A DNA stretch of 64,000 nucleotides, taken from NCBI RefSeq assembly GCF_054482595.1, contig NZ_CM137008.1; one strand, given 5' to 3'. A program made the translations under genes and the position numbers. How positions within the stretch are numbered: position 1 is the first letter of the stretch; each line of letters starts with the position of its first letter. The notes under the pieces were generated by a model. The model made no database searches. It saw nothing but the letters and a program-made list of their open reading frames with translations, and was not told the DNA's origin. Below are positions 3,581-38,820 of this stretch, in pieces.

Positions 3581-3599
3581 AATTGATATTCCTTTTTGC

Positions 3600-6066: not shown

Positions 6067-6080
6067 TGTTCCGGCCCCTT

Positions 6081-7775: not shown

Positions 7776-7804
7776 TAAAACAGGGTGGCAGTCCTACATA
7801 CCGG

Positions 7805-15166: not shown

Positions 15167-15180
15167 CGGGTTGGGAAGCG

Positions 15181-15794: not shown

Positions 15795-15914
15795 ACAGGT
15801 TCCGACATTCCCCACTCATACTAAACACCTTGTCACTTGACGCAGGGCTGAACATTTTACAACAACGGTATACCAATATGATATTGGTTTACTAAATTTT
15901 TTGGGAATCCCTCA

Positions 15915-16794: not shown

Positions 16795-16922
16795 CCGGGA
16801 AAGTTCACTCACTTTGAATGAAGTAAATATTAAGTATCACATTTTGTGATGTAGCCATTATTTTTATAAAAAATCACCTGATAGGATTTATCATAAGTTA
16901 ATGATAAGCAGAGTATTGATAG

Positions 16923-17363
16923 ATGAGCAAGAAGAAGTTTTCTGTTGAGAATGAAGATCTCTCTACTGTTCGTACATCACTTCTTAATTCCAACCTTGTC
17001 CGGAAGTTGATCATGGAAATGTCTGATGAAGACTTCAATCAAGTTAAGGATAACCTTGAAAAGGCCATTGAGCAGCGTAATGAGTTGAAGGATTCTTTGG
17101 CAATTATCAAAAAGTACATGGATGACGCAGGTGTAACGGCGGAAGATGTGTATCGTGAATTTGGCAAAAAATTACAGACGGGCAGAAAAAACGATTCAGG
17201 AGAGTCTAATAAGTACAGGTATGAGTATAACGGTCAAATAATGTACTGGAGTGGACAAGGTCGTCGGCCTTCTGTTATTGCAGAAGCAATAAAAGCCGGA
17301 GGTTCTCTTGATGATTTTCTTATATCTCAGGGCACATCATCATCTTGTTCTGATTATGAGTGA
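16923..17363 (+). CDS. H-NS-family nucleoid-associated protein (xenogeneic-silencer paralog)
   Basis: 146 aa; C-terminal YRYEYNGQIMYWSGQGRRPSVIAEAIKAGGSLDDFLI matches the H-NS DNA-binding domain signature; coiled-coil N-terminus. Confidence 0.85.
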   Translation: MSKKKFSVENEDLSTVRTSLLNSNLVRKLIMEMSDEDFNQVKDNLEKAIEQRNELKDSLAIIKKYMDDAGVTAEDVYREFGKKLQTGRKNDSGESNKYRYEYNGQIMYWSGQGRRPSVIAEAIKAGGSLDDFLISQGTSSSCSDYE

Positions 17364-17631
17364 TACATCTAATCGGTTGAATGTTGCTGTAATGCTCGCT
17401 TTTGATGCTTATATGGCAGCGTTACCGTTTATTGTTTTAGTTACAAATTGGTCGTCATGGACATAACCTGAAATTATAACTATCATCGGGTCTTTCAAGT
17501 TGCTTATGCATATAACGCCAGGGAGGAAAACGAGAGTTAAAAAATTGAACTGTTCTCATAGAGACTGTAATTTAAATTGTGTAATTGCCGGTTTTTGATA
17601 TGTTCACTCCAACAACGTAGACAAGTAGATT

Positions 17632-18139
17632 GTGGACGAAAAGACGCTTAAAGTCCTTGCGGCTGAACTGGCTAAAGGCCTCAAAACCGGGGCCGATCTC
17701 AATCAGTTTTCCCGTATGCTGACGAAATTAACTGTCGAAACGGCGCTTAATGCGGAACTCGGTAACGGCTGCAGATGTTCCTGCTCTGGTGTATGCTCAG
17801 CATCCTGTTTTGGTGCGGCGAAGACATGGAAGCGGCGGGAGAACCCCAGCGTATTAACCGCAAAGTTAACTTTGCACCGTTGCCCGGCAACCTCCACCTC
17901 AACTTCGCCCTAGTCGTGCTGGAGCTGGTATCCAGGCTGAGTTTCGAAGCGAACTGTTCTTTTTGACGGACGCATTTTACGTTTGGGCTGGATGTAGTAA
18001 CGCAGCATGGAACGTCCGCCCGTATAACCCATTGCCTGACCGTTCGTTCAGAGCAACCAATCTGAGTCGCAATATCGACAATGTACGCGCCCTGCTGGCG
18101 CATTTGCTTTATCATGTAAAAGTCCTCTCTGCTCAGCAT
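17632..18139. pseudogene. transposase gene fragments (IS256-family N-terminus on +, IS21-like HTH N-terminus on -)
   Basis: + strand ...KTLKVLAAELAKGLKTGADLNQFSRMLTKLTVETALNAEL...; - strand MLSREDFYMIKQMRQQGAYIVDIATQIGCSERTVRQW. Neither is full length. Confidence 0.45.
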
Positions 18140-19171
18140 GTTGATGTCATTTCTGGTGTGAGAACCTTAAGGAAACAACATGTTGGGTGGAGCGGAAAAT
18201 CCAAATGGTGACCGTCTTATTATCGCTGGCGCTGACACCTGAGCGATCACCTTTAATATGGTAGCAATTACACTGAATTACTTACAGATTCGTTATAACG
18301 AACCTCTGTACATAATTATGAAACAGATTTGTATTTACATAAAACATGGATATTTTTAATTTAGGTTTATTACTATTATTATACTCACTCCCTTTTTGAT
18401 ATAATCTCTATTGTTATTTACTTCCTGTCTTTACTCACTCTCTGTTCCTGTTTTCAGTGAAATAATAATTTATTTTAATTTTATCCATCATGAGCTGTAT
18501 TTGCTTAACAATGATTGTTTGCCTGATATGTTTTAACTATTCTGGTGAACATCAATTCTCTGTCATCACTGATTAACTGAATGCTTACGCTTTGATAAGG
18601 TATCCATGATTCCGTCATGTTTAACAGCGCAGAATAAACAATGAAATTAACAGAGTGAATTCCTGATTATGTTTGTTTCGGGTTGTATTGTTTAAGATGC
18701 AGAGTAAAAATCATGCCAGTGGTATTTTTTACTCTGGTAATGTGTGCGGTTAACGTTCATGTCCTTAAGAACAGATTGGATGAGGGCGTATAAGTTTATT
18801 GCGTTGGCCTTGTTCACGTTTTTTTAGAACCACTGAGAGCAAGTTTGTAGTTTATGATTGATTGGTCGAAATATATTTCTTAACCTTCTGGTTGTGGGTT
18901 TTTATCGCGTGTTTTGCAGTATTTCGTGATGTTTATTGATTCTGTATTTTATTCGCTCCTCGTTTATCTCATCTCTTTAGCTAATACCATCAGATAATCC
19001 ATTTATTTCTGCACAACGCTACGTGTCGTTAATAACCGACGTATCCATTCTGTTACAGCATGCCTGATAAATACCGTCTGTAAGTTATTACCGTTTTAGA
19101 TCTGATTATGAGCGAAAGCATTAATTCGTTTACAGCACTTAAAACGTCATTAACTTTCAGGAGTCATCAGC

Positions 19172-19738
19172 ATGCCTAAATCTTACACACCAAACTGGTT
19201 TTTTACCGCTTTACTTGACAATCACATCAATCAAATGATGGCACGCTATTCCTGCCTGCGGGCCTTACGCATGGATTTCTTCTACAGGAAAGATACGCCT
19301 GATTTCTTACAACCTGATCATCGCTGGCTTGAATTGCAGTTGCGTATGCTGCTGGAGCAGGTGGAACAATTTGAAAATATCGTTGGCTTCTTCTGGGTGA
19401 TTGAATGGACGGCTGATCATGGTTTTCATGCGCATGCGGTTTTCTGGATCGATCGTCAGAGGGTTAAAAAAATATATCCCTTTGCGGAGCGGATTACGGA
19501 ATGCTGGCGGTCTATTACGCATAACAGTGGTTCGGCACACCGCTGTACATATCAGCCGCATTATACATACAACATCAACATTCCTGTGCGCCACAACGAT
19601 CCTGAAAGCATCGATAATATTCGCGGTGCCCTGCATTATCTGGCGAAAGAAGAACAAAAAGACGGGCTGTGTGCCTACGGCTGCAATGAAGTTCCTGAAC
19701 GTCCTGCTGCAGGGCGTCCTCGTAAGCCTCACTTCTGA
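19172..19738 (+). CDS. YagK/YfjJ-family protein (second paralog)
   Basis: 188 aa; MPKSYTPNWFFTALLDNHINQMMARYSCLRALRMDFFYRKD...HAHAVFWIDRQ; AT-rich upstream region 18200-19170. Confidence 0.7.
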   Translation: MPKSYTPNWFFTALLDNHINQMMARYSCLRALRMDFFYRKDTPDFLQPDHRWLELQLRMLLEQVEQFENIVGFFWVIEWTADHGFHAHAVFWIDRQRVKKIYPFAERITECWRSITHNSGSAHRCTYQPHYTYNINIPVRHNDPESIDNIRGALHYLAKEEQKDGLCAYGCNEVPERPAAGRPRKPHF

Positions 19739-19985
19739 AAGTTTGAATCATGAGTTTCCTGGCCCGGAAACACTTAGTCGGTAAAAACTTACCTCGATGA
19801 TTAATGATGTGAACTGAAGTCAACGGAGATCATTCACCCTGAACCTGCATCCGGTGTTCTGTCCCTTATCTTCCCGTTCTGCTTCAGTTCTTCACTTATT
19901 CCATCAATCTCATCCGCAAGCCATAACACGTCAGCTCATTCACGGGCAGGACGCATTGTGGGCTGCGCATAACGGAACATATCTT

Positions 19986-20558
19986 ATGAATGCTATTCCT
20001 TATTTCGACTATAGCCTGGCCCCCTTCTGGCCATCTTATCAGAACAAAGTCATCGGCGTCCTTGAGCGTGCGCTGCGTGAACAGTCCTGCTCCCGGGTAC
20101 GGCGGATCCTGCTTCGTCTGCCGTGGGAACATGACAACGCCTTCAGTTGCAGAAAGACCTGGTTAGGCATGGATTTTATCGAAACCGTCAGTGCGCTGAT
20201 GAATGCAACCCCCGGACGCGACCTTTGCTGGATCCTAACCCGTCATCCTGAAAAGCCGGAATACCACGTGGTGCTGTGCGTCAGACAGGAGTATTTCGAT
20301 GGCCCTGAACTGGACCGGCTGATTCTGGATGCCTGGAGCAACGTACTGGGCTTCGCGTCACCGGGTGAAGCGGCACCGTACCAGAAACAGATAACACGGG
20401 ATGTGGTGCTGGACAGTCGTTCACCGGACTGCGAAGACATCCTCAAAGAGTTGATATGGGCGTTCAGTGATTTCGCCCGCGATCGTCGTGGTGTGCGCGA
20501 TCCGGAAGCCCGTTACCTCGCCGGTAACCCCTGGTATCCCGTAGCAGGCCAGTTCTGA
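19986..20558 (+). CDS. hypothetical island protein
   Basis: Start set at ATG 19986 (MNAIPYFDYSLAPFWPSY...); the ORF-track upstream extension has no RBS support. Confidence 0.45.
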   Translation: MNAIPYFDYSLAPFWPSYQNKVIGVLERALREQSCSRVRRILLRLPWEHDNAFSCRKTWLGMDFIETVSALMNATPGRDLCWILTRHPEKPEYHVVLCVRQEYFDGPELDRLILDAWSNVLGFASPGEAAPYQKQITRDVVLDSRSPDCEDILKELIWAFSDFARDRRGVRDPEARYLAGNPWYPVAGQF

Positions 20559-23252: not shown

Positions 23253-24291
23253 ACAAATATTATTGAAAGAGATTTTTATGAAAACGAAGCTTTTTACGAT
23301 TTCTATCGGCATTGATGTAATATAGAAGAGTTATATAAATTATTCAAATCAAATTTTCTATTGAAGATTTTCATTCACAGAGTGAGAAAGATGTAAAATA
23401 AAAATACAGGCTCATATATTATTACTTAACCTTACATGGATATCCTGAAATGACATTAATTATTAAGATAATAACGTTTTCATCGGTAGTAGTAGAAATA
23501 AACAAAATTTTAATTTCAAAAACTGCTTGTTTCTCGTAGTGAGGTACTTGTCTTTACTGATTCGGATAACAGGAAAACATTTAAAATCATTCTGTTGCGC
23601 TCTTTCTGAGAGGCTGATTGCAAAATGGCATCTGAATCGATCGCAGTTGTATGACTCAGCGAGTAAGGCCAGGGAGGTGTTACCCACGAAAATATGTACG
23701 GCCCAGAACGCGCTGGAACTCTTTTGATGCTCCAGCAAGAACTTAACCGAATGCCATTGGTACGCTGCCCCACAGAAAATTCCGTCACTAATGGCGGTAG
23801 CCGACAGATTCACATGGCGTCACCGCAGTAAACCAAGATGGATCTTGATTGCGTCCTCAACAGACAACATATCTGCTTTGGACAACGAGCCAATATGTGT
23901 TTTGAGACAGGACTTATCCGCCGCCATAATCTGCTCTACAATCGCTTTGCTGCTCTGACACCTACGGTCACAACAGCCTCACTTGGATACACTCGCTCTG
24001 TGTTACTGGTCAGAGGAACGACGACTACTCGAGCGAGGTTCCTGTTTGCTGCGTCATTGCTCACGATCACTGCCGGACATGTCTTGCGGATTTCACTGTC
24101 AACAGCAGGATCAAATTCAATCCACCACGTCTCACCTGTGCCGTCACTGCTCTGTCATCTTTCTAACACTTTACTGTCTAACACATGTAATAAAAAAGTT
24201 ATTTTTCTGCAATTCGGGCATGATATTTAATCCCACGAGCATGAAACGTGTGAATTCGCTCATCAGGTACAACAAGCAAGAGAGATAAACG

Positions 24292-25608
24292 ATGAAACCG
24301 TTACATTATACAGCTTCAGCACTGGTGCTCGGACTGACGTTAATGGGGAATGCACAGGCAGTGACGACCATTCCGTTCTGGCACTCTATGGAAGGGGAAC
24401 TGGGTAAAGAGGTGAATTCTCTGGTCCAACGTTTTAACGCCGAAAACCCGGATTACAAAATTATACCGACTTATAAAGGCAACTACGAAGAGAGTTTAAG
24501 TGCGGGGATCGCAGCATTTCGTACCGGTAACGCTCCGGCTATTTTGCAGGTTTATGAAGTTGGCACCGCCACCATGATGGCGTCGAAAGCCATTAAACCG
24601 GTGTATGACGTGTTTAAAGAGGCGGGGATTAACTTTGATGAGTCGCAGTTTGTGCCGACGGTTTCAGGCTACTACTCCGACAGTAAAACCGGACACTTAC
24701 TCTCCCAGCCGTTCAACAGCTCGACTCCTGTTCTCTATTACAACAAAGATGCTTTCAAGAAAGCAGGATTAGACCCGGAACAGCCGCCGAAAACCTGGCA
24801 GGATCTGGCGGACTATGCCGCGAAACTGAAAGCCTCCGGTATGAAGTGCGGCTACTCCAGCGGCTGGCAGGGCTGGATCCAACTGGAAAACTTTAGCGCC
24901 TGGAACGGTCTGCCGTTTGCCAGCAAAAACAACGGCTTTGACGGCACAGATGCGGTGCTGGAGTTCAACAAGCCGGAGCAGGTGAAACACATCGCCATGC
25001 TCGAAGAGATGAACAAGAAAGGCGATTTCAGCTACGTCGGGCGTAAGGATGAATCCACCGAGAAGTTCTATAACGGTGATTGCGCAATGACGACTGCCTC
25101 TTCTGGTTCTCTTGCCAGCATTCGCGAGTACGCCAAATTCAACTACGGCGTAGGCATGATGCCTTACGACGCTGACGCGAAAGATGCACCACAAAACGCC
25201 ATTATCGGCGGAGCCAGCCTGTGGGTGATGCAGGGCAAAGATAAAGAAACGTATACCGGCGTGGCGAAGTTCCTCGACTTCCTCGCGAAGCCAGAAAATG
25301 CTGCCGAGTGGCACCAGAAAACCGGTTATCTGCCAATCACCAAAGCGGCGTATGACCTGACCCGTGAGCAGGGCTTTTACGAGAAAAACCCAGGGGCGGA
25401 TATCGCGACACGTCAGATGCTGAACAAACCGTCGTTACCGTTCACCAAAGGACTACGTCTGGGCAACATGCCGCAGATCAGAGCGATTGTGGATGAAGAG
25501 CTTGAGAGCGTGTGGACCGGTAAGAAGACGCCACAGCAGGCGCTGGATACCGCCGTTGAGCGTGGGAATCAGTTACTACGCCGCTTTGAGAAATCGACGA
25601 AGTCTTAA
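24292..25608 (+). CDS. ugpB: sn-glycerol-3-phosphate ABC transporter periplasmic binding protein
   Basis: 438 aa, near-identical over its length to E. coli UgpB as I recall it ([11 protein letters not shown]...GNAQA signal, ...[10 protein letters not shown]-terminus). Confidence 0.9.
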
Positions 25609-25742
25609 CCAGTGTAATGTCGGATACGTTTCGCCTATCTGAGCTAACATCGCGTGTAGGCCGATGTGATTGACATCTTCCTCCTTACGGCATCAACGTT
25701 CCAGACTGAGATGTACCCAGTTCCCTGGTGGAGAAGTCAGTC

Positions 25743-26650
25743 ATGAATATTAATCGTATTGGTTTCGATCTTGCCGAAAAATGTTTTTCAAATCCACGGC
25801 GTTGATCACAATGAATAGTGGTACGGAGAAAAACGCTGAGCCCTCCCCACATGATGACGTTTTTCTCCGGGCTTTCTCCCTGCCTCATCAGCATCGAAGT
25901 CTGTGGCTCTTCCCATTCTGGGCACGGGAACTCATTCCGTATGGGGCCTACCGTGCGCATTATTCCGTAGAAACTTGTCAAATCTTATCTCAAAGGTAAC
26001 AAAAACGACGCTAATAATGCAGCTGCCATCTGTGAGGCCGTCAGCAGGCCCGGCATGCGATTTGTTGTTTTCATATCGGAATCCCAGCAGACGTTACAGG
26101 AAGAATACCGGGTCCGGGCCAGAATCATCCGCGAGCGAACGGCGTTGCGTAATGAAATCCGGGGGCTGTTGAGTGAATTTGGTCTGCTGCTGCCTGTGGG
26201 GATAAGGCACGTGCGTAAAATCCAGCAGGGAATACTGCCCAGGGGCAGTGGAATGACCCTTCATCCGTTTGTTGTGCGAACTGTCAGAGTAAAATGAACT
26301 CATATCGTCTCATGACCACCGTCTTCATGAGGCTGCAAGGGATGATATCCGTATTAAACAGCTGATGGAGCTAAAAGGAGTTGGTCCCACAACAGCCTGT
26401 GCGCTGGTTGCCTGTATCGGTAATGCACATGATTTTAAAAAGGGACGGCAACTGGCAGCCTGGCTGGGCTGACGCTATCACAATACAGCAGCGGCTGAAT
26501 GTCGAAGCTGGGCAGGATAACAAAAGCCGGTGATTCGTATCTGCGAATGCTTCTGGTTCAGGGGGCTCGTTCAGTACTGATTGGTGCTGAGAAAAGGACT
26601 GACTCATTCAGTCGTTGGGTCTGTTCACTGGTTGAACGCAGAGAATACTG
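25743..26650 (+). pseudogene. IS110-family transposase, multiply frameshifted
   Basis: Starts MNINRIGFDLAEK then shifts frame; later pieces ...EYRVRARIIRERTALRNEIRGLLSEFG... and ...LMELKGVGPTTACALVACIGNAHDFKKGRQLAAWLG... in different frames. Confidence 0.6.
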
Positions 26651-27102
26651 ACGCGCTGTTGTGGCCATCGCCGCCAGAAAGGTAAGGCTGTGCTGGGCAT
26701 CATGTCATTACGGTGATGATTTCAGGCTGTATTCAGCCAGCTAAAGCACGCAGCAACCGTATGACTATCTGATCTGCAACTCGTTGATGATAAAGTGTTA
26801 GACCCTGTGAGGTATATCTGATTATTGTACAGGATATACGTATCCGCTTAACGAACAAGAGCCTCACGCGCGTCTTTCATCTGGGCCGAATAGATGAGAT
26901 TCATCATGGTTGTTTATAGTACCGTCGTCTCTCCCCTTTATTTTTACAGAAAAGCAAACAGAAACCATAAATACCGGCGTTGACATGGCGGGGAAGCCGG
27001 CAACGGCTATCCCTACCGTAATCATAATATTTCTGTCATTTCTGCTCCCTACAATGACGTTAGTTTTACTTCTGGGCGATAACAACGAAAGGAGAGTATG
27101 AC

Positions 27103-28446
27103 ATGCACAACTCCAAAATCCGGCTGGCTATACTGGTTGGCTGCATGGCTCTGAGCGCCAACCTGTGGGCCAAAGCGCAGCCGGTGCAGGCAACGCTGGC
27201 CGGGCATGCAATTCTGCCGGCAAAATCCGCTGTTTCAACACCGAAGGATGCGCCGGGCGATTTGCAACAGAGCGGCAAATACACCAGCGGCAAACGCGTC
27301 ACCGAGCTGGGCAGCGTGGCGGGCAAATCCGCAGAACGCCTGACAGGACTCAGCCTGCCGATCAATGGTCAGCCGTTGCAGGGCCACTCAGGTATCAAAC
27401 ACATGCCCGACGGTACCTATTGGGTGCTGACTGACAATGGCTTCGGCAGCAAAGCCAACTCCCCGGATGCCATGCTGTACCTCAACCAATACAAGATAGA
27501 TTTCAAAGACGGCTCGGTAGTACCGCTGAAGACGCTGTTCCTGCATGATCCGGATAAAAAGGTGCCGTTCCACATCATCAACGAGAGCACCGAACTACGC
27601 TATCTGACCGGCAGCGATTTTGATCCGGAAAGCTTCCAGTTTTCCGACGATGCCTTATGGATCGGTGATGAGTTCGGTCCTTACCTGATCAAGACCGACC
27701 TGAACGGCAAGGTGCTGGCGGTGTTCGACACAGAAGTGGACGGTAAGGTGGTTAAATCGCCGGACAACCCGACGCTGACTCTACCTAGCGCTCCGGACGG
27801 TAAGCTGAACTTCCAGGTGGCGCGTTCCAAAGGCTTTGAAGGCATGGCCATCTCGCCGGACGGCAGTAAGCTGTATCCGCTGCTGGAAGGGGCATTGTGG
27901 GACGGTGAGCAGTTCGAGAACGTTGACGGAAAACGCTACCTGCGTGTGCTGGAGTTCGATACCAAACAGCAGGCCTGGACTGGTCGCAGCTGGCAGTACG
28001 TGCTGGAAGACAACCAGAACGCCATCGGCGACTTCAATATGATAGATGATACCCACGGACTGGTGATCGAGCGTGATAACGGCGAAGGCACGGCGGATAA
28101 AGCCTGCGTCGCCGGCGCGCCGACCAACAACTGCTTCAGTCAAGTAGCCAGGTTCAAACGGGTGTATAAAATTGCTTTCTCGGACACTAACGTCGGAAAA
28201 CCTGTCGAAAAACTGGGCTATATTGACCTGATGAAGATTCAGGATCCGAACAAGCTGGCACGCAAGCCGCTGAACGACGGTGTGCTGACCTTCCCGTTCT
28301 TCACCATCGAGAACGTGGATGTGGTTGACACTAACCACATCATCGTAGGCAACGATAATAACTTCCCGTTTTCCTCCAGCCGCTGGCCTAATATGGCGGA
28401 TGACAACGAGTTTATTCTACTGGATGTGAAGGATTTTCTGAAGTAG
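27103..28446 (+). CDS. secreted phytase-like esterase-family protein
   Basis: 447 aa with signal peptide (MHNSKIRLAILVGCMALSANLWA); family call is by recollection only. Confidence 0.5.
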   Translation: MHNSKIRLAILVGCMALSANLWAKAQPVQATLAGHAILPAKSAVSTPKDAPGDLQQSGKYTSGKRVTELGSVAGKSAERLTGLSLPINGQPLQGHSGIKHMPDGTYWVLTDNGFGSKANSPDAMLYLNQYKIDFKDGSVVPLKTLFLHDPDKKVPFHIINESTELRYLTGSDFDPESFQFSDDALWIGDEFGPYLIKTDLNGKVLAVFDTEVDGKVVKSPDNPTLTLPSAPDGKLNFQVARSKGFEGMAISPDGSKLYPLLEGALWDGEQFENVDGKRYLRVLEFDTKQQAWTGRSWQYVLEDNQNAIGDFNMIDDTHGLVIERDNGEGTADKACVAGAPTNNCFSQVARFKRVYKIAFSDTNVGKPVEKLGYIDLMKIQDPNKLARKPLNDGVLTFPFFTIENVDVVDTNHIIVGNDNNFPFSSSRWPNMADDNEFILLDVKDFLK

Positions 28447-28485
28447 GGGGAAGAGCATCTTACGATACTCCTCGCTAATTTAAAA

Positions 28486-28512
28486 ACGAACGGTGCTGAG
28501 CACCGTTTTTAA
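28486..28512 (+). terminator. Rho-independent terminator
   Basis: AACGGTGCT-GA-AGCACCGTT hairpin followed by TTTT, about 40 bp after the stop of the 27103-28446 gene. Confidence 0.6.
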
Positions 28513-28563
28513 TCACCTCGCCAGAACCTACCAGAATATGATGTTGGTGGTAATGACTCCAAC

Positions 28564-29067
28564 TTATTGATAGTGTTTTATGTTCAGATAATGCCCGATG
28601 ACTTTGTCATGCAGCTCCACCGATTTTGAGAACGACAGCGACTTCCGTCCCAGCCGTGCCAGGTGCTGCCTCAGATTCAGGTTATGCCGCTCAATTCGCT
28701 GCGTATATCGCTTGCTGATTACGTGCAGCTTTCCCTTCAGGCGGGATTCATACAGCGGCCAGCCATCCGTCATCCATATCACCACGTCAAAGGGTGACAG
28801 CAGGCTCATAAGACGCCCCAGCGTCGCCATAGTGCGTTCACCGAATACGTGCGCAACAACCGTCTTCCGGAGACTGTCATACGCGTAAAACAGCCAGCGC
28901 TGGCGCGATTTAGCCCCGACATAGCCCCACTGTTCGTCCATTTCCGCGCAGACGATGACGTCACTGCCCGGTTGTATGCGCGAGGTTACCGACTGCGGCC
29001 TGAGTTTTTTAAGTGACGTAAAATCGTGTTGAGGCCAACGCCCATAATGCGGGCTGTTGCCCGGCAT
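28564..29067 (-). CDS. insB: IS1 InsB
   Basis: 167-aa ORF; the functional transposase would be the InsAB' frameshift fusion. Confidence 0.9.
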
Positions 29068-29261
29068 CCAACGCCATTCATGGCCATATCAATGATTTTC
29101 TGGTGCGTACCGGGTTGAGAAGCGGTGTAAGTGAACTGCAGTTGCCATGTTTTACGGCAGTGAGAGCAGAGATAGCGCTGATGTCCGGCGGTGCTTTTGC
29201 CGTTACGCACCACCCCGTCAGTAGCTGAACAGGAGGGACAGCTGATAGAAACAGAAGCCAC
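28986..29261 (-). CDS. insA: IS1 InsA
   Basis: 91 aa; [40 protein letters not shown]... Confidence 0.9.
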
Positions 29262-29396
29262 TGGAGCACCTCAAAAACACCATCATACACTAAATCAGTA
29301 AGTTGGCAGCATCACCCGCAGGACTTAGGTGCCGTAGCCTTAGTACCAAAAGGCGATACCTCTGGCGCTGACCGTAAAGGTCTTTTCAATCGTTCA

Positions 29397-29843
29397 TTGT
29401 TCAAATATGACCAGGAAAAAGATATTTATATTTGCCCGATGGGTGAAGAACTTCAGAACCGATTTACGATGGTTGAGGATGGTTTAGAACAGCAAATGTA
29501 CTTTAACAATATTGCCTGTCGCGATTGCAGTCAGCGGTCAAGGTGCACCACATCAAAACGCGATCCGAGGCGTATAAAGCGCTGGGTTCATGAAGCAGAA
29601 ATGGAAGACATGCAAGCCAGGCTTAATGCATCGCCACAAACAGCTGTCGTGCGAAAGCAAACGGTAGAGCATCCGTTCGGGACAATTAAGATGTGGATGG
29701 GAGCGACTCACTTCCTGACGCAACGGTTTAAAAACGTCAGCACAGAAATCAGTCTGCATGTACTGGCTTATAACCTGAAGAGGATGATGTCCATCTGGGG
29801 GGCCGAAGGATTGGCCATTAAGCTGCGAGAACGATGCAGCTAG
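29397..29843 (+). pseudogene. DDE transposase C-terminal fragment (IS5/IS1182-like), truncated at the IS1 junction
   Basis: ...HPFGTIKMWMGATHFLTQRFKNVSTEISLHVLAYNLKRMMSI is a typical DDE transposase C-terminus; the N-terminal half is absent. Confidence 0.5.
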
Positions 29844-30167
29844 CGGCAGTGGCCGCTTTAACTCCTAATAACTGGCCATTAGTACTCCATATCAAGCCAC
29901 AAAGTCTCGTTTTGCCTCAACATACAAATCACTGCGAATACAGCCCATATCAGGAATATCTTGCATCCCTGCTGGTGTTAGTCCTCAGATACTGAAAAAA
30001 CCGAGTTTTTACACAGCCTGGGCACGAAGCGGACCGCCTGAAGCGCAGCAAGGTCTGCTTTGAACTCACAGCGAAGAGCAGAATATACCGGGAGATATCC
30101 TCTTTCATGAGTTGGCAGCCTCTCTCGCATAATATCGAAAACACGGGAGAGGCCGTTACAGCCGCCG

Positions 30168-30932
30168 TTAGTTAGCACGGAATTCCTGGACGGTATCCCA
30201 TGCCACCTGCTGCAGCGCTTTGGCGGTTTGCTCGGTCATATCGCTGTCGGCAGGCAGTGCGCCGCCTATCGGTGACTGGTCATACAGCGTGGCGAACAGC
30301 ACGCTGGCAGCCAGATAGGTTCCCGCCAGCGAGGGGTGATTTCCATCGCTATGATACAGATTGATTTCAGGATGCGTCTTAATTGCGTTACTGAAGGCCA
30401 GCCCGACCGGCGCGACGTATCCCCCGGTTTTACTGGCTATATTCAGATAGGCTTTCTCCAGTTTTTCAGTTTGCTCGGGTTTATCCTTGCTGGCCCAGGT
30501 CATAAAATAAACCACACGCGAGCCCTCTTTGTGAGCCATATCTGCCATCTTGACGGCGGACTCCGTGAAATAGTGACGCGAATCTTTTTTAGCGGAAAAA
30601 GGCTCTGTTGAATTCCCCTGAAATATCACCACGTCCCATTTTTGCAGCGTATTCTGGAATTCAAGATTCGGAAGGTGCCAGCCTAAACGTCCAGAAGAAA
30701 TGGTGATTCCCCGGAACATATAGTCTTTAGCGCCATTCGGTAACAGCGAACGGCTGAGATCGCGCAGTCGGGTATTTATATTATTGTTATAATGTGTATA
30801 TGAATTTCCGTAGAGCGCAATGGATTTATTGACTCCGCTCAGTTTATCCTGCGGTTTGGCTGCAATAATCGTATCGGCCTGCGCGTCGACCATCAGCGCC
30901 AGTCCTGCCAGCAACAACATGATTTTTTTCAT
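30168..30932 (-). CDS. secreted SGNH/GDSL-type hydrolase (esterase-like)
   Basis: Start set at ATG 30932 (MKKIMLLLAGLALMVDAQA signal); family assignment tentative. Confidence 0.5.
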   Translation of the reverse strand: MKKIMLLLAGLALMVDAQADTIIAAKPQDKLSGVNKSIALYGNSYTHYNNNINTRLRDLSRSLLPNGAKDYMFRGITISSGRLGWHLPNLEFQNTLQKWDVVIFQGNSTEPFSAKKDSRHYFTESAVKMADMAHKEGSRVVYFMTWASKDKPEQTEKLEKAYLNIASKTGGYVAPVGLAFSNAIKTHPEINLYHSDGNHPSLAGTYLAASVLFATLYDQSPIGGALPADSDMTEQTAKALQQVAWDTVQEFRAN

Positions 30933-30942
30933 TATTCTTTCC

Positions 30943-31992
30943 TCAGAAGTCGTAGCGCAACCCGACGATAATGGCGTCATCGTTGACCTTCTCGTTTTTA
31001 CTGGCCAGCGTATTAAGGTAAGTTGCTGATAAATACACATTCTTAGCTAAGGTTAGCTGCGATTCAATTCGCCAGCCCTCGTGTTCGTACACATCCTCGT
31101 CGGCTTCATCCAGGATGCTGTACCCGCCAAGCACTTTGAATTCTTTGGTGAATTGATAGGAGGCAACGGAATCGAAACTCGTATAGTCATTGTCAGATTT
31201 ATTGTCTCTTTCTATGGAGACCTTACCCGCCGTTACGGCTAATGACAAATCGCTATAATCGAACTGCAGCCCGCCCATTACCTGGCTGTGCTTCTTGCGG
31301 CCGTCGGTGGTTTTTACGCCGTCCTGACGGTTATATTGACTGACGGCAATCGCCGGTGTGATTTTTACGTCGCCGAATTTAATCATCTTGCGATAACTGG
31401 CCATCATGCCGTTATCAAGTGCATCGTTGTCGCTATTGCCATTTCCAAAAACGTAAGCCAGTTGCACCTGATGCCCGCTAAAATCACCGTTCCATTGCAG
31501 GGTGCCATCCTGACGGTTAAATTGGTAAGAATCGTCAATAGTGGTAATACCGTAGTTATATACGTTTGGCGTAAAGTTTTTATATTTGTCCGTCATGCGC
31601 ATGACCTGATATAACGGGTTTTTAGTACGACCGGCAATCAGCTCGCCATATTTAGCATGAGAAAGCCCCAGATAGGCGTAACGGGCGTCGAGATCTTTAT
31701 CTTTGGTTTTATTATCATCTTTTTCAGTACGAACCTGCCACTCCAGGCGACCGACAAGTTTAGTATCTTCCAGTAAAGGGAGGTCGCGGGTTAAATAAAT
31801 CCCTAAGCGCCCCCCTATTTGGCTACGGGAGTCATCATTTGCGAATGATGCTTCTCCATTCGCTAACTGCCACTCAATACGCCCGTAAATATCCAGCGTG
31901 GTGGCTTTATCCTCATAAACGCTAATCGCCAGCGCTGACGTGCTAGCCCCAGATAAGGCAATGAATAATAATGTTTTGGCTTTAATGCTCAT
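30943..31992 (-). CDS. outer-membrane beta-barrel porin
   Basis: 349 aa, signal peptide (MSIKAKTLLFIALSGASTSALA), alternating hydrophobic pattern, C-terminal ...GLRYDF with terminal Phe. Confidence 0.6.
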   Translation of the reverse strand: MSIKAKTLLFIALSGASTSALAISVYEDKATTLDIYGRIEWQLANGEASFANDDSRSQIGGRLGIYLTRDLPLLEDTKLVGRLEWQVRTEKDDNKTKDKDLDARYAYLGLSHAKYGELIAGRTKNPLYQVMRMTDKYKNFTPNVYNYGITTIDDSYQFNRQDGTLQWNGDFSGHQVQLAYVFGNGNSDNDALDNGMMASYRKMIKFGDVKITPAIAVSQYNRQDGVKTTDGRKKHSQVMGGLQFDYSDLSLAVTAGKVSIERDNKSDNDYTSFDSVASYQFTKEFKVLGGYSILDEADEDVYEHEGWRIESQLTLAKNVYLSATYLNTLASKNEKVNDDAIIVGLRYDF

Positions 31993-32410
31993 GCTGTTCT
32001 TCCCCTTTAAAAAATAAATATGTTCGCCCTTGATGCAGGATTAAATAGTTGTTATCAGGCGCCATTAATTTTTAGTTACATTAATGCAGAGCGAATACGG
32101 GAATTGCGTTTTCTCATAATAAAATGTGATTTTACGCACATAAAATAGGGCTTAATGGCTGGCGTTGTTATTTGTGAAGATTTCATTGAAAATAAATAAT
32201 AGCGATTTAATTGATTCTCTCCGAACTGAGATATAAATGGCGAATTTATGTTAATCTCATCACGTTTTTCATATTGTGATCCCCGGAACATATGGGAAAT
32301 GCATATTCCCCTGTTTACGCAGTGAGAATTGCTCCAGAATACTCGTTACGCAGTTAAATTTGATTTGAATGATATGCTGTTATCAGCGACGTACGTCACA
32401 GGAGTTTATA

Positions 32411-33781
32411 ATGCCAGGCAGTCAAAGTTCGGTATTTGATTCAGAATTGTATTCCTCTCTCTTCACGCAGCCGGAGATGAAATCAATCTGGTCCGATGAT
32501 AATCTTCTTCGCTGTTGGCTGACCTTTGAAGCAACCATCGCGCATGTGCAGACTGAGTTAGGTATTATTCCCCCTGAAGCCGCCGCGGAAATTTCCGCCG
32601 CCTGCCAGACGCTGAAAATAGACTGGCCGCGCCTCGCCAGGGAAACGCGTTCCGTCGGTATGGCGATTAAGCCTCTGGTTGATCAAATTGCCGATGCGGG
32701 TTCCCCTTTGGTCAAAAAATACCTTCACTGGGGCTGCACGACTCAGGATCTGCTGGATACCGCCCTGGCCATGCGCATGAAGCAAACCCTGCAATTACTG
32801 CGCAGACAGTTGGTGCAGTTGGGCGAAACGTTGAAAGCTATGGCGCTTGAGCACCGACATACGGTGATGGTCGCCAGAACGAATTCCGTCGATGCTTCCG
32901 CCACGACGTGGGGGCTACACGTCAGCAGCTATCTGTCCGAGCTAACCCGCCACCTTCAGCGCCTGGATCGCCTCTACCCGGCAGCGACTACCGGCCTGTT
33001 TGGTGGCGCGGTCGGCAACCTGGCCTCCGTCGGCAGCCAGGGAATGGCGATACGTAAGCAATTAATGGGCGCGTTAGGGTTGTCATGCCCTGTCGGTATG
33101 AGCAATGCCAGTCAGGATCATGTAGTCGAAGTGGTGCAGTTTTTTGCCCTGGTGCATGGCACGCTGTGTCGCATGGCCAACGACGTTGAAACGCAGGGCC
33201 GCACGTCCGTGGGCGAGTTGCGTGAAGGCGAAGGCGGTGGAGGATCCAGTACGATGCCACACAAGACGAATCCCCGCGCGAGCAATATGATCCAGACGCT
33301 TTCCCGCATGGGCTGGAACTATGCCTCTGGTGCAACCAGCCTTCTCGATCAGTGTGACGTGCGTGCTGCCTCCGCCCGCGTACTCAACTGGACGCTGGTA
33401 CCGGAGTCGGCGCTGGCCTTGTCGGCCAGCCTTGAACGTGCTGTCCGGTTAATTACGCATCTGGTGGTGGACAAAGAGAAGATGCGCAGCAACTTCGCCG
33501 CTTCAAAGAACTTCATTATGTCGGAATCCGTCACCATGGTATTGGCTGAGAAAATCGGGCGTGGTGCCGCTTACGATCTGATGAAAGCGTTATTAAAAGA
33601 CGCAGACGGCTCTAAAGACCTGTTGCAGTGCATGCTGGAAAATCAGACCGTTATTGACGCGCTAACTGAGTCGGAGATTGTTGCTGCTTGCGATCCATTG
33701 TCTTATCTGGGCTGCAATGACGCGCTGATCGAAGAAACCGTCATAGCCTTCGACGATTACATTCATGTCCGGACGGCGTAG
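32411..33781 (+). CDS. fumarate-lyase-superfamily enzyme (adenylosuccinate-lyase / 3-carboxymuconate-cycloisomerase-like)
   Basis: ATG 32411 preceded by AGGAG; signature GSSTMPHKTNP (GSSxMPxKxN); substrate not inferable from sequence. Confidence 0.75.
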   Translation: MPGSQSSVFDSELYSSLFTQPEMKSIWSDDNLLRCWLTFEATIAHVQTELGIIPPEAAAEISAACQTLKIDWPRLARETRSVGMAIKPLVDQIADAGSPLVKKYLHWGCTTQDLLDTALAMRMKQTLQLLRRQLVQLGETLKAMALEHRHTVMVARTNSVDASATTWGLHVSSYLSELTRHLQRLDRLYPAATTGLFGGAVGNLASVGSQGMAIRKQLMGALGLSCPVGMSNASQDHVVEVVQFFALVHGTLCRMANDVETQGRTSVGELREGEGGGGSSTMPHKTNPRASNMIQTLSRMGWNYASGATSLLDQCDVRAASARVLNWTLVPESALALSASLERAVRLITHLVVDKEKMRSNFAASKNFIMSESVTMVLAEKIGRGAAYDLMKALLKDADGSKDLLQCMLENQTVIDALTESEIVAACDPLSYLGCNDALIEETVIAFDDYIHVRTA

Positions 33782-33834
33782 TCCAGAGCCATTCGCTTCC
33801 TGCCGAAAGCAGGTGTGCCGACAGGAAGCGGTCA

Positions 33835-34722
33835 TTATCCAGGAAGAGGTGAAAAGGTTTCAAAAAAGACAAACAGTTCCTCCAGTTGCTCGAAATTGCC
33901 CTCGCCTTCGCCTTTTTCATAGGCCAGATGCAACACCAGCTCAATAAAAAAGAAACCTACGATGCGGCTTTTGAATACGGATTGCGTATCGCTCGGCAAC
34001 ACAAACTGCAGATTACAAAATTTGCCGTACGGGTTGGACTCCGAGTTAGTAATCAGCACTACCGTCGCGCCTTTTTTACAACACCATTCGGTAACGCGAA
34101 TCACTACCCGGTTAAAACGGTAGTAGGAGAAAACGATCAGCACGTCCTGATCCGTAACGGTCAGCAATGACTTCGGCAACTCCCCAACGTCCATAGAAAG
34201 CAATGTAACCCGATCGCGGAAATATTTAATCAGCGTAGTAAAATGTTTCGCCATCGCATAGGAAGACGCGGGACCGATTACGTATATATGTCGGTTGGTA
34301 TTCAAAATAATGTCGATAAATTTATCCAGACTGTCAATATTGATATTATCTTTAAAATTCTCGAACAAGGTCGTAACATTCTTATTAAATTCGGAAACAA
34401 TTTGTTCCGTGGTAATCTTTTCTTTTACCTGAATGCGTGATGCCAGCTCAAACGGCGGCACCATTTTTTGCAGTGTCAGCGTATTTTCCAATGCCCGACG
34501 GAAGTCAGCGTAGCCGATAAATCCCAGCTTATTTAAAAAACGCCCAACCGTTGCTTTACTCACCATTGCATTGCGGGCAATGTCGATGATGCCGTGAAAA
34601 GGGAGTTCATTAAAATGTTCACGCATATACGCGTCAAGACGGTGTTCTGACTCGGTTAGTGAACATAACAGCACGGTTTTTGAAATATAGTCCTCTAATG
34701 TTAAAGGGGTATTTTTTTTCAT
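33835..34722 (-). CDS. RpiR/MurR-family transcriptional regulator (HTH + SIS domain)
   Basis: 295 aa; N-terminal HTH (...IIDIARNAMVSKATVGRFLNKLGFIGY...), C-terminal SIS-like region; divergent from the transporter gene. Confidence 0.7.
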   Translation of the reverse strand: MKKNTPLTLEDYISKTVLLCSLTESEHRLDAYMREHFNELPFHGIIDIARNAMVSKATVGRFLNKLGFIGYADFRRALENTLTLQKMVPPFELASRIQVKEKITTEQIVSEFNKNVTTLFENFKDNINIDSLDKFIDIILNTNRHIYVIGPASSYAMAKHFTTLIKYFRDRVTLLSMDVGELPKSLLTVTDQDVLIVFSYYRFNRVVIRVTEWCCKKGATVVLITNSESNPYGKFCNLQFVLPSDTQSVFKSRIVGFFFIELVLHLAYEKGEGEGNFEQLEELFVFFETFSPLPG

Positions 34723-35005
34723 AATTGTCGTCCTTACACACTACGGATAAAAAGATACTATATTCAGTATAGAGAATAACCTTATCACATAATAATGCTA
34801 TGCTATAGCCTTCCGTAAAGTGATTGACATATTTCCTGTTATGAGATCATGCGCACAAACCCCAGCGGGAAAAGCAATTTCTCATAGCTCACATTACCCT
34901 GATTCGATCATGATTTCATTACGGCATCAGTCTCTGAATTTATAGAGAATTAGGCGATCTAAATATAACTAGCCGTCATATATAGGAAAACAAAAGGACG
35001 ATCTC

Positions 35006-36382
35006 ATGACCGCATTTGTAATCGCAATCGTGATCACTATCATTGCAGCATGGTTAATCATCAAGAACTTCCAACCTCAGACGGTATTGCTGCTGGCTGG
35101 TTTGTCTTTACTGACCATTACTGCTGTCTTCTATCCTGATAATAGCATTCTCTACGGTAAGGCTAAATCAACCGGTTCCACCTGGCTGGATATCTTTACG
35201 TTTGCCAAAAATTCACTCTCCACACAGATCGCCGGTATCGGTTTGATCATCATGGCCGCGGGCGGCTTTGCCAGTTATATGGATCATATCAAAGCCTCCA
35301 ATGCAATGGTGAACGTCTGCATTCGTCCCCTGCAAATCATCAAGGCGCCCTACGTGATCCTGGCTGTGGGGTATATTTGCGCACAGTTGCTGCACGTCGC
35401 GATTTCCAGCGCCGCCGGGCTGGCGATGATGTTATTAGTGACGTTCTTCCCGGTGTTGGTACGACTGGGTGTCAGTAAAGCAGCGGCGGCGGCGATGATC
35501 GGTCTGTGCGCCTTTATGGACTTAGGCCCGGCGGTCGGCACGGCCAACCTGGCGGCTAAACATGCCGGTATGGAAGCCGCCGTTTACTTTGCGCACTATC
35601 AGATGCCGGTGGCTGTTGCCGTTATGTTGGTAGTGTCGGTGCTGATTTTCTTTACCGCCAAATATTATGACAAGAAAGATGGTCACGTGATGACCAGCCA
35701 GGTGGCGGACGACACGACGCCTCAGAGTGAGGATAGCGAAAAAGTGCCGGGGCTGTATGCTTTCCTGCCTGTATTCCCTGTGATTCTGGTGCTGGTCTTT
35801 AGCCCGTTGGTCATCTCCACCATTAAAATCGACGTAGTTACCGCCATGATTGTCGGCACAATACTGGCGTTCGTCTGCGAACTGTTCGTTAAACGCGACT
35901 TCCGTGCCTGCTGTAAAGGTGTACAGGTATTTTTTAAAGGAATGGGCGGGATGTTTACCAGCGTGGTTTCATTGTTAGTGTGTGCGGATATCTACGCGCA
36001 GGGAATGCAAAAAATCGGCGCGGTGGATTACCTGTTGGAGATGGTGCAGAACGCGGGCTTTGGCTTTGCCAGCATGACCGTGGTGATGACGCTGCTGGTA
36101 GGTATAACCGCTGTACTGACGGGCTCCGGGGTTGCGGCATTTTTCTCTTTCTCCGGCATGGCGCCTGCTATCGCCACTAAATTTGGCGAAAGCGCTGTAC
36201 ATATGATTCTGCCGATGCAACTGATGGCTGGAATGGGACGTTCCATTTCTCCCGTCGCAGGGATCATCATTGCGGTCAGCAAAGCCGGTGAATGTTCACC
36301 GTTCATGATAGTGCGCAGGACCTTAATTCCGGCGCTCGGCGGCATGCTTACCATGTTGCTGGCTAACTACCTGTTGTTCTGA
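35006..36382 (+). CDS. DcuC-family (C4-dicarboxylate-type) membrane transporter
   Basis: 458-aa polytopic membrane protein; size and composition resemble DcuC as I recall it. Confidence 0.55.
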   Translation: MTAFVIAIVITIIAAWLIIKNFQPQTVLLLAGLSLLTITAVFYPDNSILYGKAKSTGSTWLDIFTFAKNSLSTQIAGIGLIIMAAGGFASYMDHIKASNAMVNVCIRPLQIIKAPYVILAVGYICAQLLHVAISSAAGLAMMLLVTFFPVLVRLGVSKAAAAAMIGLCAFMDLGPAVGTANLAAKHAGMEAAVYFAHYQMPVAVAVMLVVSVLIFFTAKYYDKKDGHVMTSQVADDTTPQSEDSEKVPGLYAFLPVFPVILVLVFSPLVISTIKIDVVTAMIVGTILAFVCELFVKRDFRACCKGVQVFFKGMGGMFTSVVSLLVCADIYAQGMQKIGAVDYLLEMVQNAGFGFASMTVVMTLLVGITAVLTGSGVAAFFSFSGMAPAIATKFGESAVHMILPMQLMAGMGRSISPVAGIIIAVSKAGECSPFMIVRRTLIPALGGMLTMLLANYLLF

Positions 36383-36469
36383 AGGACGTGTCGTCAGTGC
36401 GATGCCATTAAATCCAGAGAGCCAGGCGAGAGTACTTTGTTGTCAACATCAGTTAGCCGGACGTAAGTT

Positions 36470-38164
36470 ATGACCCACGAAATCACAGACAATTTACTTT
36501 ATATCCCTTATGCAGGCCCGGTATTACTGGAATCCCCGCTGCTGAACAAAGGCAGCGGGTTTACTGAAACAGAACGCGCAATGTTTAACCTGAGCGGGCT
36601 GTTGCCCGCAGCGGTTGAGACGATTGAAGAGCAGTCGCTGCGGGCCTATCAGCAATTCCTGGATATCAAGTCGGATATTGCCCGTCATATCTTTCTGCGC
36701 AATATTCAGGATACCAACGAGACGCTGTTTTATCACCTTGTGAGCAAGCACCTGGTGGAAATGATGCCGATTATTTATACCCCGGTAGTCGGACATGCGT
36801 GTGAACACTTTTCCGACATCTATCGCCGCGCCAGGGGATTATTCATCGCCTGGCCGGACCGGCATATGATCGACGAAATATTGCATAACGCCACAAAGCA
36901 GAATATTTCGGTGATTGTCGTCACTGACGGGGAGCGGATCCTCGGCCTGGGCGATCAGGGAATTGGCGGCATGGGGATTCCTATCGGCAAACTTTCGTTG
37001 TACACCGCCTGCGGTGGTATTAAGCCGTCGCATACGCTGCCAATCTTATTGGATGCGGGAACGAACAATTCCCAATTGCTCAATGACCCTTTGTATATGG
37101 GTTGGCGTCATCCGCGCATCACCGGCGACGCATATTTTGAGTTCGTCGAGATGTTTATCCGCGCGGTTAAGCGCCGTTGGCCGGACGTGCTATTACAGTT
37201 CGAAGATTTTGCCCAACAGACGGCGATGCCGCTGCTGACCCGCTATCGTGATGAGATCTGCTGTTTTAATGATGATATCCAGGGTACCGCAGCGGTGACT
37301 TTGGGATGCCTGATGGCGGCAAGCCAGGCCTCCCAACGTCGGTTATGTGACCAAACGGTAGTCTTCCTGGGCGCGGGATCGGCCGGATGTGGCATTGCCG
37401 AACATATCGTCACGCAGATGGTGGCTGAAGGGTTGACCGATGAGCAGGCCCGTTCACGCATTTTCATGGTGGATCGCTTTGGCCTGCTTACGGACGATCA
37501 AACTAATCAGGCTCCTTTCCAGTCACCGCTGGCGCAGCCGCGGTCGCGTTTGGCGAGCTGGGGCGGTCAGCAGGAGGCGTACTCGCTGATGGACGTGGTA
37601 AGCCAGGCTAAACCGTCCGTTCTGATTGGCGTCAGCGGGCAGCCAGGACTATTCAGCGAAGCGGTGATCGGGGAAATGTATCGTCACTGTTCGCAACCGA
37701 TAGTTATGCCACTTTCCAACCCAACCTCGCGCGCAGAGGCACGGCCGGAAGATATTCTGCGCTGGACCGATGGTAACGCGTTAATCGCCACCGGCAGCCC
37801 GTTCGAGCCGGTAAGCCACGGGGGAAAATTGTATCCTGTTGCACAATGCAATAATGTTTATGTCTTCCCTGGTGTGGGTCTCGGCGTGATGGTTAGCCGT
37901 GCCACACGCGTCACGGATAACATGATGATGGCGGCCAGCCGCACGCTGGCAAGTTGTTCGCCGCTGGTGCGCGACGGGCGTGGTCCGCTGTTGCCCAGTA
38001 TTAATGACATCCGGCAGGTGACGCAGGCCATCGCCCTTGATGTTGCTCTGGCTGCTCAACGTGATGGCGTCGCCGTAAATATCCCGCAGGAAACCTTGCA
38101 ACATAACATTTCGAGCGGATTCTGGGAGCCGCAGTATCTTCAGTACAAGCGCACCTCATTCTGA
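36470..38164 (+). CDS. NAD-dependent malic enzyme (MaeA/SfcA paralog)
   Basis: 564 aa; ...[22 protein letters not shown]...[34 protein letters not shown]...[13 protein letters not shown]... tracks E. coli MaeA closely but is clearly diverged. Confidence 0.85.
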
Positions 38165-38280
38165 TAAGCAGTCTGTAGCGGGAAGATCTTGATACCGTTG
38201 GTAACGGCGGTATCAATTCCGTAAAAGCCGCATGGCCCGTATCTGTTCCGAGTGTATCCGGTGTTATGGTAGCGCAATCG

Positions 38281-38700
38281 TCACCGGGCATAGCGACCCG
38301 GCAGATTCATACACAGTTTCGTCTCCTCGGCATAGAAATGCGGCAGGTTCCGCTGATAGTCAGACGGCGTTACACCACAAAGCATTTTGAAATCTTTGCT
38401 GAAATGGGCCTGATCATGGAAATCGAGGTCACAAGCAAGGGTGCGCAAATCGACCACGCCGTGATGGATGCGCCGGCACGCTTCATTTACTCTGAGAATA
38501 CGGACAAACGATTTCCAGGAAACGCCAATCCTCTCCTGGCAGAAGCGGTTAATGTGCCGGGCGCTGTATGACGTCATCTCGGACAAGCTATTAAGACGAA
38601 TGCCCCCGTTCAGCGGGGAAGCATGCGTCAGTACCTGACGCAGCAGCGGTTTTTCCTCCAACACAGCGAAGGTGGAAGTTGAGAATAACTCCTTAAGCAA
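38281..38700 (-). pseudogene. AraC-family regulator, HTH domain only (sensor domain cut off by IS1 copy B)
   Basis: 139-aa ORF with an AraC-type HTH; an in-frame stop lies between it and the IS1 end at 38821. Confidence 0.55.
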
Positions 38701-38820
38701 AGGTAGCCCGCAGAAGTATACTGAACGCTATAAAGAATGTAGTGGAGATGCTGGTTGTGAACAGCAGATCCGTAAGGATATGGCGAAAGAATCGGCGGAA
38801 AATGTTCTTAAGTTGAAGTC

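Follow-up and report, generated by a model that had tools for sequence, protein, structure and literature searches.

The DNA analysed here is a 64,000-nucleotide stretch of RefSeq contig NZ_CM137008.1 (assembly GCF_054482595.1), hereafter the window, and our subject is the gene at 27103-28446 on its + strand, which encodes a 447-residue protein of the Pfam family PF13449 ('Phytase-like'). We consider it rather probable (about 0.6) that this protein is a periplasmic β-propeller that acts as a metal-dependent, probably Ca2+-dependent, organophosphate esterase and is made, under phosphate shortage, from a PhoB-activated promoter of its own. The gene itself is not new, being a catalogued and annotated accessory gene of Escherichia coli, while the family behind it is uncharacterised. 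The conserved Pho boxes of its members, their phosphoesterase fusion partners and their extreme conservation make PF13449 a good candidate for a phosphate-starvation enzyme that has not yet been described. The gene and its control signals are laid out as follows, in coordinates of the window.

27103..28446, + strand: coding sequence with ATG start, 447 amino acids (from the listing of open reading frames), PF13449 'Phytase-like' β-propeller protein
27103..27174, + strand: predicted Sec signal peptide of about 24 amino acids, cleavage after AKA (by inspection)
27089-27095, + strand: strong ribosome-binding site AAGGAGA, read from the sequence, 8 nt 5' of the ATG
27050..27055, + strand: -10 hexamer TACAAT, exactly 10 bp past the Pho box
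27022..27039, + strand: Pho box (putative PhoB site) TCATAAT ATTT CTGTCAT, 10/14 matches, at -81 from the ATG

The open reading frame is a genuine gene, since its product retains about 70% identity across Gamma-, Beta- and Alphaproteobacteria and reaches 93% with the protein of Serratia bockelmannii; RefSeq already annotates it (WP_029397907.1 in the best-matching genome). Two antisense open reading frames that overlap it (27781-28338 and 27066-27365, both on the - strand) found no support and were taken as shadow frames. The N terminus, MHNSKIRLAILVGCMALSANLWAKA followed after the cleavage point by QP, combines a basic n-region with a hydrophobic core and an A-x-A site, judged by inspection of this sequence and of 85 orthologs, among which this layout is seen as well. 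In the AlphaFold2 model the signal-peptide region contains a low-confidence N-terminal helix (residues 4-17). The E. coli and Serratia clade has a lipobox-like motif, LVGC (residues 11-14, 27133-27144), within its signal peptide; some Serratia have LAGC or LASC in its place, and Yersinia and Providencia lack the Cys. Because the Cys is missing in the last two genera and the hydrophobic stretch runs beyond it, signal peptidase I cleavage between AKA and Q appears more likely than lipidation. The pair Cys335 and Cys344 is invariant among orthologs, which is consistent with an oxidising compartment. The preliminary description of this locus, made from the letters of the window alone, called the protein secreted; export to the periplasm is indeed predicted, but nothing indicates extracellular release in E. 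coli.

Native DNA extends 94 bp 5' of the ATG. The interval 26900-27100, which had been singled out as the place to look for a Pho box, does contain one, at 27022-27039, with the architecture of the phoA and phoB promoters and conserved across orthologs. Its downstream half, CTGTCAT, is perfect, its upstream half is weak (3/7) and its spacer is all A/T. There is no -35 element upstream of the gene, and a simple sigma-70 promoter scan found no promoter there; we do not count the latter result against our reading, because it is expected for a -35-less, PhoB-dependent promoter. Promoters of E. coli K-12, scored in the same way as half-site matches out of 14, compare as follows.

pstS (K-12): 14/14, box at -106 from the ATG; three overlapping boxes, -106 to -84
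phoA (K-12): 12/14, box at -80 from the ATG; 10 bp, then TATAGT
phoB (K-12): 12/14, box at -81 from the ATG; 10 bp, then CATAAT
ugpB (K-12): 11/14, box at -136 from the ATG; multiple boxes
phoE (K-12): 10/14, box at -99 from the ATG
Window gene: 10/14, box at -81 from the ATG; 10 bp, then TACAAT

The geometry of the box thus closely matches that of phoA and phoB. A composite criterion asks for a perfect half-site, 10/14 or more in all, a spacer of A/T only and TAnnnT at the right distance; on both strands of the 64-kb window it selects a single site, at the promoter of the gene, against 0.09 per 128 kb in shuffles. The site also recurs among orthologs. In 85 ortholog promoters, which span Gamma-, Beta- and Alphaproteobacteria and have otherwise unrelated flanks, tandem half-sites scoring at least 10/14 are found in 63.5%, against 5.9% of dinucleotide shuffles and 1.2% of coding-region controls; at a threshold of at least 11/14 the corresponding values are 34%, 0.5% and 0%. 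Their positions cluster 150-200 nt upstream of an invariant LxGH motif, and typical sites read CTGTCAT-GCGA-GCGTCAC or ATGTCAC-GGCG-CCGTCAC. Serratia, Yersinia, Providencia, Pectobacterium and Entomohabitans, whose flanking genes and upstream sequences are unrelated, each have a Pho-box-like 18-mer, 10 bp and a -10-like hexamer at an equal distance to the gene, with hexamers such as TATAGT, TATTAT and TATGAT found at this spacing among the orthologs. Since the site recurs despite unrelated flanks, this evidence marks the orthologous group as a conserved, putative member of the PhoB regulon. Published expression data point in the same direction: a Nodularia protein bearing the same annotation is strongly induced by phosphorus limitation (log2 ~5.5; PMC9846622), and in the exoproteome of Synechococcus WH8102 a 'phytase-like' protein co-varies with alkaline phosphatases (PMC4949707).

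The second line of evidence comes from the protein itself. The identity of about 70% holds between Enterobacterales and Burkholderiales or Rhizobiales, and such conservation across classes speaks for an enzyme under constraint. Among orthologs, dozens of positions with Asp, Glu, Asn, Arg or Lys are invariant, and the motifs DNG, NSxD, RxLTGxDxDxE, GDEFGP, SxGFEG, ERD, TIE and NDNN are invariant or nearly so in 62 sequences, down to 33% identity. The same motifs are kept in an alignment of 26 multidomain relatives (A3), in standalone and fused forms alike. The fusion partners, tallied over 36 multidomain relatives, are GDPD (29), PhoX (5), PhoA-type alkaline phosphatase (4), PhoD (4) and Exo_endo_phos (3), with 5'-nucleotidase, NPP and Metallophos domains found as well; RTX Ca2+ repeats are present in 12, and two multidomain relatives carry a true phytase domain, PF02333, as a separate unit. 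The names of the distant and multidomain relatives are all homology-derived. In most long relatives GDPD appears from the alignment not to be appended to the propeller but inserted in it, between the 'GDEFGP' and 'SKGFEGMA' blades, at a site equivalent to about residues 209-241 of the window protein, and the invariant residues of the propeller are retained. This insertion suggests that both domains may act on the same substrate, and the GDPD fusions point towards a substrate in the glycerophosphodiester or phospholipid head-group area.

As a family assignment, the earlier 'phytase-like' call stands: PF13449 matches at 209 bits against a cutoff of 27.6, over the entire profile (1-284 of 284) and residues 90-421 of the protein. 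It does not extend to 'phytase' in the proper sense. No other Pfam family matched at E≤10, neither the β-propeller phytase family PF02333 nor any cyclase; an NCBIfam scan returned no family model for the protein; and sequence searches of the PDB, both by single sequence and by a 62-sequence profile, gave only noise and no related chain. The PF05787 match and the twin-arginine signal that mark members of PhoX are absent from the window protein. The AlphaFold2 model, built on the 62-sequence alignment, is all-β and of high confidence (predicted local distance difference test score 95.1, predicted template-modelling (TM) score 0.92), with 20 strands between residues 95 and 441 in addition to an N-terminal β-extension; going by the strand count, these would fit five four-stranded blades. 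A Foldseek search of the PDB with this model returned generic propellers only (TM ~0.3). The propellers ranked first by fold search are those of glutaminyl cyclase and YjiK, and Bacillus phytase appears only in the generic background. The fold is therefore not specifically closest to the six-bladed phytase propeller. Profile comparison with YjiK gave a weak match (probability 68%, E 5e-5), in which the blade motifs DxE[ST], GDE and GFEG[ML]A line up. As there is no PF02333 match, no sequence relative in the PDB and no specific phytase fold, 'Phytase-like' is a historical label and not a demonstrated relationship.

On the reading we prefer, phosphorylated PhoB would bind 27022-27039 in place of a -35 element under phosphate limitation and recruit RNA polymerase to TACAAT, and the resulting monocistronic mRNA would stop at a borrowed hairpin at about 28488-28512. 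The Sec pathway would export the protein, with cleavage of the signal peptide. A set of invariant residues (Asp, Glu, Asn, Arg and Lys) located along the inner strands and in blade loops would then bind the metal and the phosphoester, and hydrolysis of the latter would release phosphate in the periplasm.

Several observations weigh against this reading. The Pho box of the window gene, at 10/14, is at the bottom of the K-12 control range (10-14) and equal to phoE, and among eight non-Pho K-12 upstream regions, whose best scores are 8-10, two also reach 10. The composite criterion was framed after the site had been seen. The IS110 element upstream ends about 26 bp from the box, so that any PhoB sites or UP elements further upstream have been lost. 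Neither of the nearest folds, glutaminyl cyclase and YjiK, is that of a phosphatase. We found no biochemically characterised or structurally solved PF13449 member in the literature or the PDB, so we infer both catalysis and metal use. In three Pseudomonas strains, PhoBR control was not seen for the known or predicted phytases, which may or may not belong to PF13449 (Lidbury et al., PMC5082522). Finally, the fusions could equally mean that the domain is a non-catalytic helper.

The last point amounts to an alternative in its own right, that the propeller is a Ca2+- or substrate-binding helper of true phosphatases (GDPD, PhoX, PhoA, PhoD) and that the standalone form serves them in trans. It would account well for the multidomain proteins, which nearly always pair the domain with a bona fide phosphoesterase and in which GDPD is apparently inserted in the propeller; it would also suit the E. 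coli plasmid NZ_CP141865, in which a PhoX gene adjoins the gene, and YjiK, the closest protein by profile and fold, which has no known enzymatic activity. We nevertheless regard it as unlikely, in view of the standalone orthologs, which have no conserved partner gene at 85 loci, and of the E. coli hosts of the window's cassette, which have no adjacent partner; moreover, invariance at dozens of Asp, Glu, Asn and Arg positions is more typical of an active site than of a binding surface. Quite unlikely, in our view, is a genuine Ca2+-dependent β-propeller phytase hydrolysing myo-inositol hexakisphosphate, with which gut and poultry E. coli would mine dietary phytate. The Pfam name and the propeller fold agree with it, many carrier strains come from grain-fed poultry, and it is compatible with control by a Pho box, but nothing in sequence or fold specifically supports it.

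A phosphate-regulated esterase, which we favour over both, would have come into the window as a small unit, the limits of which emerge from comparison with other copies of the gene. The unit and its surroundings are as follows.

27009..28460, + strand: native cassette, promoter and gene; the block common to other copies of the gene
About 28488-28512, + strand: intrinsic terminator-like hairpin GAACGGUGC-UGA-GCACCGUUU overlapping a U-run (RNA folding)
28450..28548, no strand assigned: IS4-family remnant of 99 bp, the 3' flank of the gene, 94% identical to an IS4-family transposase pseudogene region of another E. coli chromosome
28549..29316, - strand: IS1A, a boundary outside the unit (annotation and blastn comparison)
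25664..26996, + strand: decayed IS110-family element, a boundary outside the unit; annotated by the Prokaryotic Genome Annotation Pipeline (PGAP) as a frameshifted pseudogene at about 25743-26744
24292-25608, + strand: orphan ugpB, a neighbour outside the unit, 932 bits to the UgpB equivalog

In local blastn comparisons the copy on plasmid NZ_CP141865 is 92.6% identical across 27009-28460, and the Serratia bockelmannii chromosome is 90.0% identical at the nucleotide level over 27024-28446, its homology stopping at the stop codon of the gene. On the upstream side, homology to intact IS110 extends to 26996. By these alignments the native DNA is promoter and gene alone, a minimal cassette, which probably came from a Serratia-like chromosome and is now wedged between a dead IS110 and the IS4 remnant with IS1A, in a mosaic chromosomal island.

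A 447-residue signal-peptide protein with a terminator of its own, following the ugpB/IS110 junction, had been read from the sequence, and the reading frame, the signal peptide (by inspection) and the hairpin are all there. The hairpin consists of 9 bp, is G+C-rich and is followed by a U-run (-12.5 kcal/mol, z = -4.07; 0 of 200 shuffles fold as well); flanked by an A-tract and a U-tract, it may possibly terminate transcription in both directions. It lies inside the IS4 remnant, however, and is thus a second-hand terminator and not part of a native 3' flank.

The preliminary description had also taken the juxtaposition with ugpB, a Pho-regulon gene, to suggest a phosphate-scavenging cargo. The ugpB region (24131-25663) is 93% identical to chromosomal ugpB over that span only: homology to the chromosomal ugp locus ends at 25663, 55 bp past the ugpB stop, whereas K-12 has ugpA starting 97 bp downstream of that stop, and no ugpAEC partners stand next to the window ugpB, the locus being cut by IS110. 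The orphan keeps tandem Pho boxes (24141-24169) and could be expressed under phosphate limitation, competing or cooperating with the chromosomal Ugp transporter. Between this orphan and the PF13449 gene lie about 1.3 kb of frameshifted IS110. All-versus-all neighbour clustering found neither ugpB nor any conserved neighbour near the gene at any of the 85 ortholog loci (0/85); the large clusters over these loci consist only of shadow open reading frames overlapping the gene itself, and real neighbours are shared within genera only. The gene is monocistronic and autonomous at all loci compared, with no neighbour recurring beyond single genera, and its plasmid copies are accompanied by part of IS110 without ugpB. 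Because the orphan is cut after its stop codon, IS110 intervenes and none of the 85 ortholog loci shows the pairing, the juxtaposition is not evidence for a cargo; the adjacency is an accident of insertion sequences.

These results bear directly on the possibility that ugpB and the gene were selected as a two-gene phosphate-scavenging cargo, co-transcribed or co-selected, with UgpB capturing the product of the enzyme. Both genes are on the + strand and have Pho boxes, and no + strand terminator was detected between them. The strongest fusion partner of the family is GDPD, and glycerophosphodiesters and glycerol 3-phosphate, its substrates and products, are UgpB ligands; furthermore, the ugpB-IS110-gene trio is kept in a set of island-bearing genomes. 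That shared arrangement, however, is explained by common descent at ≥99% identity, and the frameshifted IS110 between the genes, the fragmentary state of the ugp operon and the absence of ugpB from plasmid copies and ortholog loci all tell against the pair. We find such a cargo very unlikely, and as a designed unit it is largely refuted. Phosphate scavenging itself is retained as the best reading, on the strength of the Pho box and the fusions and not of the ugpB neighbour. A role with no connection to phosphate (cyclase, lactonase or lectin-like propeller) beside a fortuitous Pho-box-like sequence is extremely improbable, given a Pho-box signal in 85 orthologs that lies at a conserved position and exceeds the shuffle rate ~10-fold (≥10/14) to ~70-fold (≥11/14), enzymatic fusion partners that are all phosphoesterases, an identity to glutaminyl cyclases of only 10-12% with no Pfam cyclase match, and the reported induction of same-annotation proteins by phosphorus limitation (PMC9846622).

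Beyond the single gene, we tentatively propose, as a possibility we hold with less than even confidence, that standalone PF13449 propellers, about 70% identical from Enterobacterales to Burkholderiales and Rhizobiales, form a distinct class of PhoB-regulated, Zn-independent periplasmic phosphoesterases, which would be neither phytase nor PhoA, PhoD or PhoX. Given that most multidomain relatives have GDPD fused to the propeller and apparently inserted in it, the chemistry of the class would be linked to the turnover of glycerophosphodiesters or phospholipid head groups. Some E. coli and Shigella lineages would have acquired one such gene from a Serratia-like donor, in the form of a self-contained cassette under Pho control.

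Over 20 kb the window is 99.7% identical to a mosaic chromosomal island found in E. coli from birds, dogs and humans, and in the SRL pathogenicity island (SRL-PAI) of Shigella flexneri the gene is listed as orf34 (PMC6980539, Table 2). The 1.5-kb cassette is present in 228 of 5,426 complete E. coli genomes, is ≥99% identical in 224 of them, and occupies 251 chromosomal places versus 7 on plasmids; the proteins annotated in these 228 genomes are the same as that of the window or nearly so. According to the annotation of a matching genome, positions 1-20000 of the window are a CP4-57-like island backbone that carries a CbtA/YeeU toxin-antitoxin system, an antirestriction protein, DUF932, YfjJ/YagK-like proteins, inovirus Gp2-family proteins, an H-NS paralogue, a restriction endonuclease and several decayed insertion sequences; this content is consistent with an SRL-PAI-like integrative island. 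Downstream of the gene, inverted IS1 copies (28549-29316 and 38821-39588) bracket a segment of about 9.5 kb (29317-38820) with genes for an SGNH hydrolase, a divergent porin (35 bits to PhoE), a class-II fumarase/aspartase-family protein, a MurR/RpiR regulator, DcuC and an NAD-malic enzyme. In content the segment resembles a module for C4-dicarboxylate or aspartate catabolism, and it brings to mind the D-aspartate module (orf8-orf9) of the SRL island. Directly after the second IS1, at 39595-43092 on the - strand, PGAP annotates in the matching genome a 1,165-residue autotransporter with an outer-membrane β-barrel domain.

Two plasmids show the gene in other settings. In NZ_CP141865 (10094-13694) the gene copy is convergent with a gene for a 659-residue PhoX-family phosphatase bearing a twin-arginine signal; this IncF plasmid also carries astA (EAST1) and a large autotransporter, and PhoX adjoins the gene in this plasmid lineage only, not being a recurrent neighbour among the loci compared. 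In plasmid NZ_CP104510 (11233-15130) two directly repeated IS1A copies flank an 'IS110 fragment - gene - IS4 remnant' block, in a replicon that resembles a phage-plasmid (tail, ParB and antirepressor genes). An IS1 composite transposon was considered there and rejected: there is no target-site duplication, as the outer flanks ...ACATGCCTG and CATTAAAGG... differ.

For the window itself these results are of little consequence, since the gene is catalogued and its ugpB neighbour is a by-product of insertion sequences. The family is a different matter. Thousands of proteins are named 'esterase-like activity of phytase', a name for which no specific relation to real phytases was found here, and studies of phosphate-solubilising bacteria count such proteins as phytases (PMC9777792, PMC12697123). 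The gene may also be relevant to phosphate acquisition by poultry-associated and extraintestinal E. coli.

Among known systems, PhoA-aty of cyanobacteria and marine phytoplankton is described as a phosphomonoesterase induced by phosphorus limitation, which Ca2+, Mg2+ or Mn2+ activates and Zn2+ does not, with conserved D/E-rich and 'PD' motifs (PMC6723241, PMC4548154), and an 'atypical alkaline phosphatase' of Nodularia bears the same RefSeq family name as the window protein (PMC9846622). PhoA-aty may be related to the window protein, a lead given by an annotation string in one paper; the PhoA-aty papers do not name the domain, and we claim no relation. The comparison with K-12 Pho promoters such as phoA and phoB is closer: the box replaces the -35 element, lies 10 bp from the -10 hexamer and about 80 nt from the ATG, although the window gene, unlike the canonical promoters (phoA, phoB, pstS, phoE, ugpB), has only one strong half-site. 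YjiK (PF06977, PDB 3qqz) and the bacterial glutaminyl cyclases (3mbr, 3nok), the nearest folds at 10-12% identity, include no known phosphatase or Pho-regulated protein, and the window protein is about 200 residues larger than they are and has an N-terminal β-extension. With the β-propeller phytases (PF02333; Bacillus TS-Phy/PhyC, PDB 1poo) it would share an exported, acidic-rich β-propeller, plausibly Ca2+-dependent and plausibly phosphate-scavenging, but it lies outside PF02333 and its fold is not specifically nearest to theirs. PhoX (PF05787) is Ca2+-dependent. Like phoX, and like phoA, the window gene is monocistronic without a conserved neighbour; like PhoX, which is also the fusion partner in five relatives, its product is a predicted exported, propeller-type protein associated with a Pho box.

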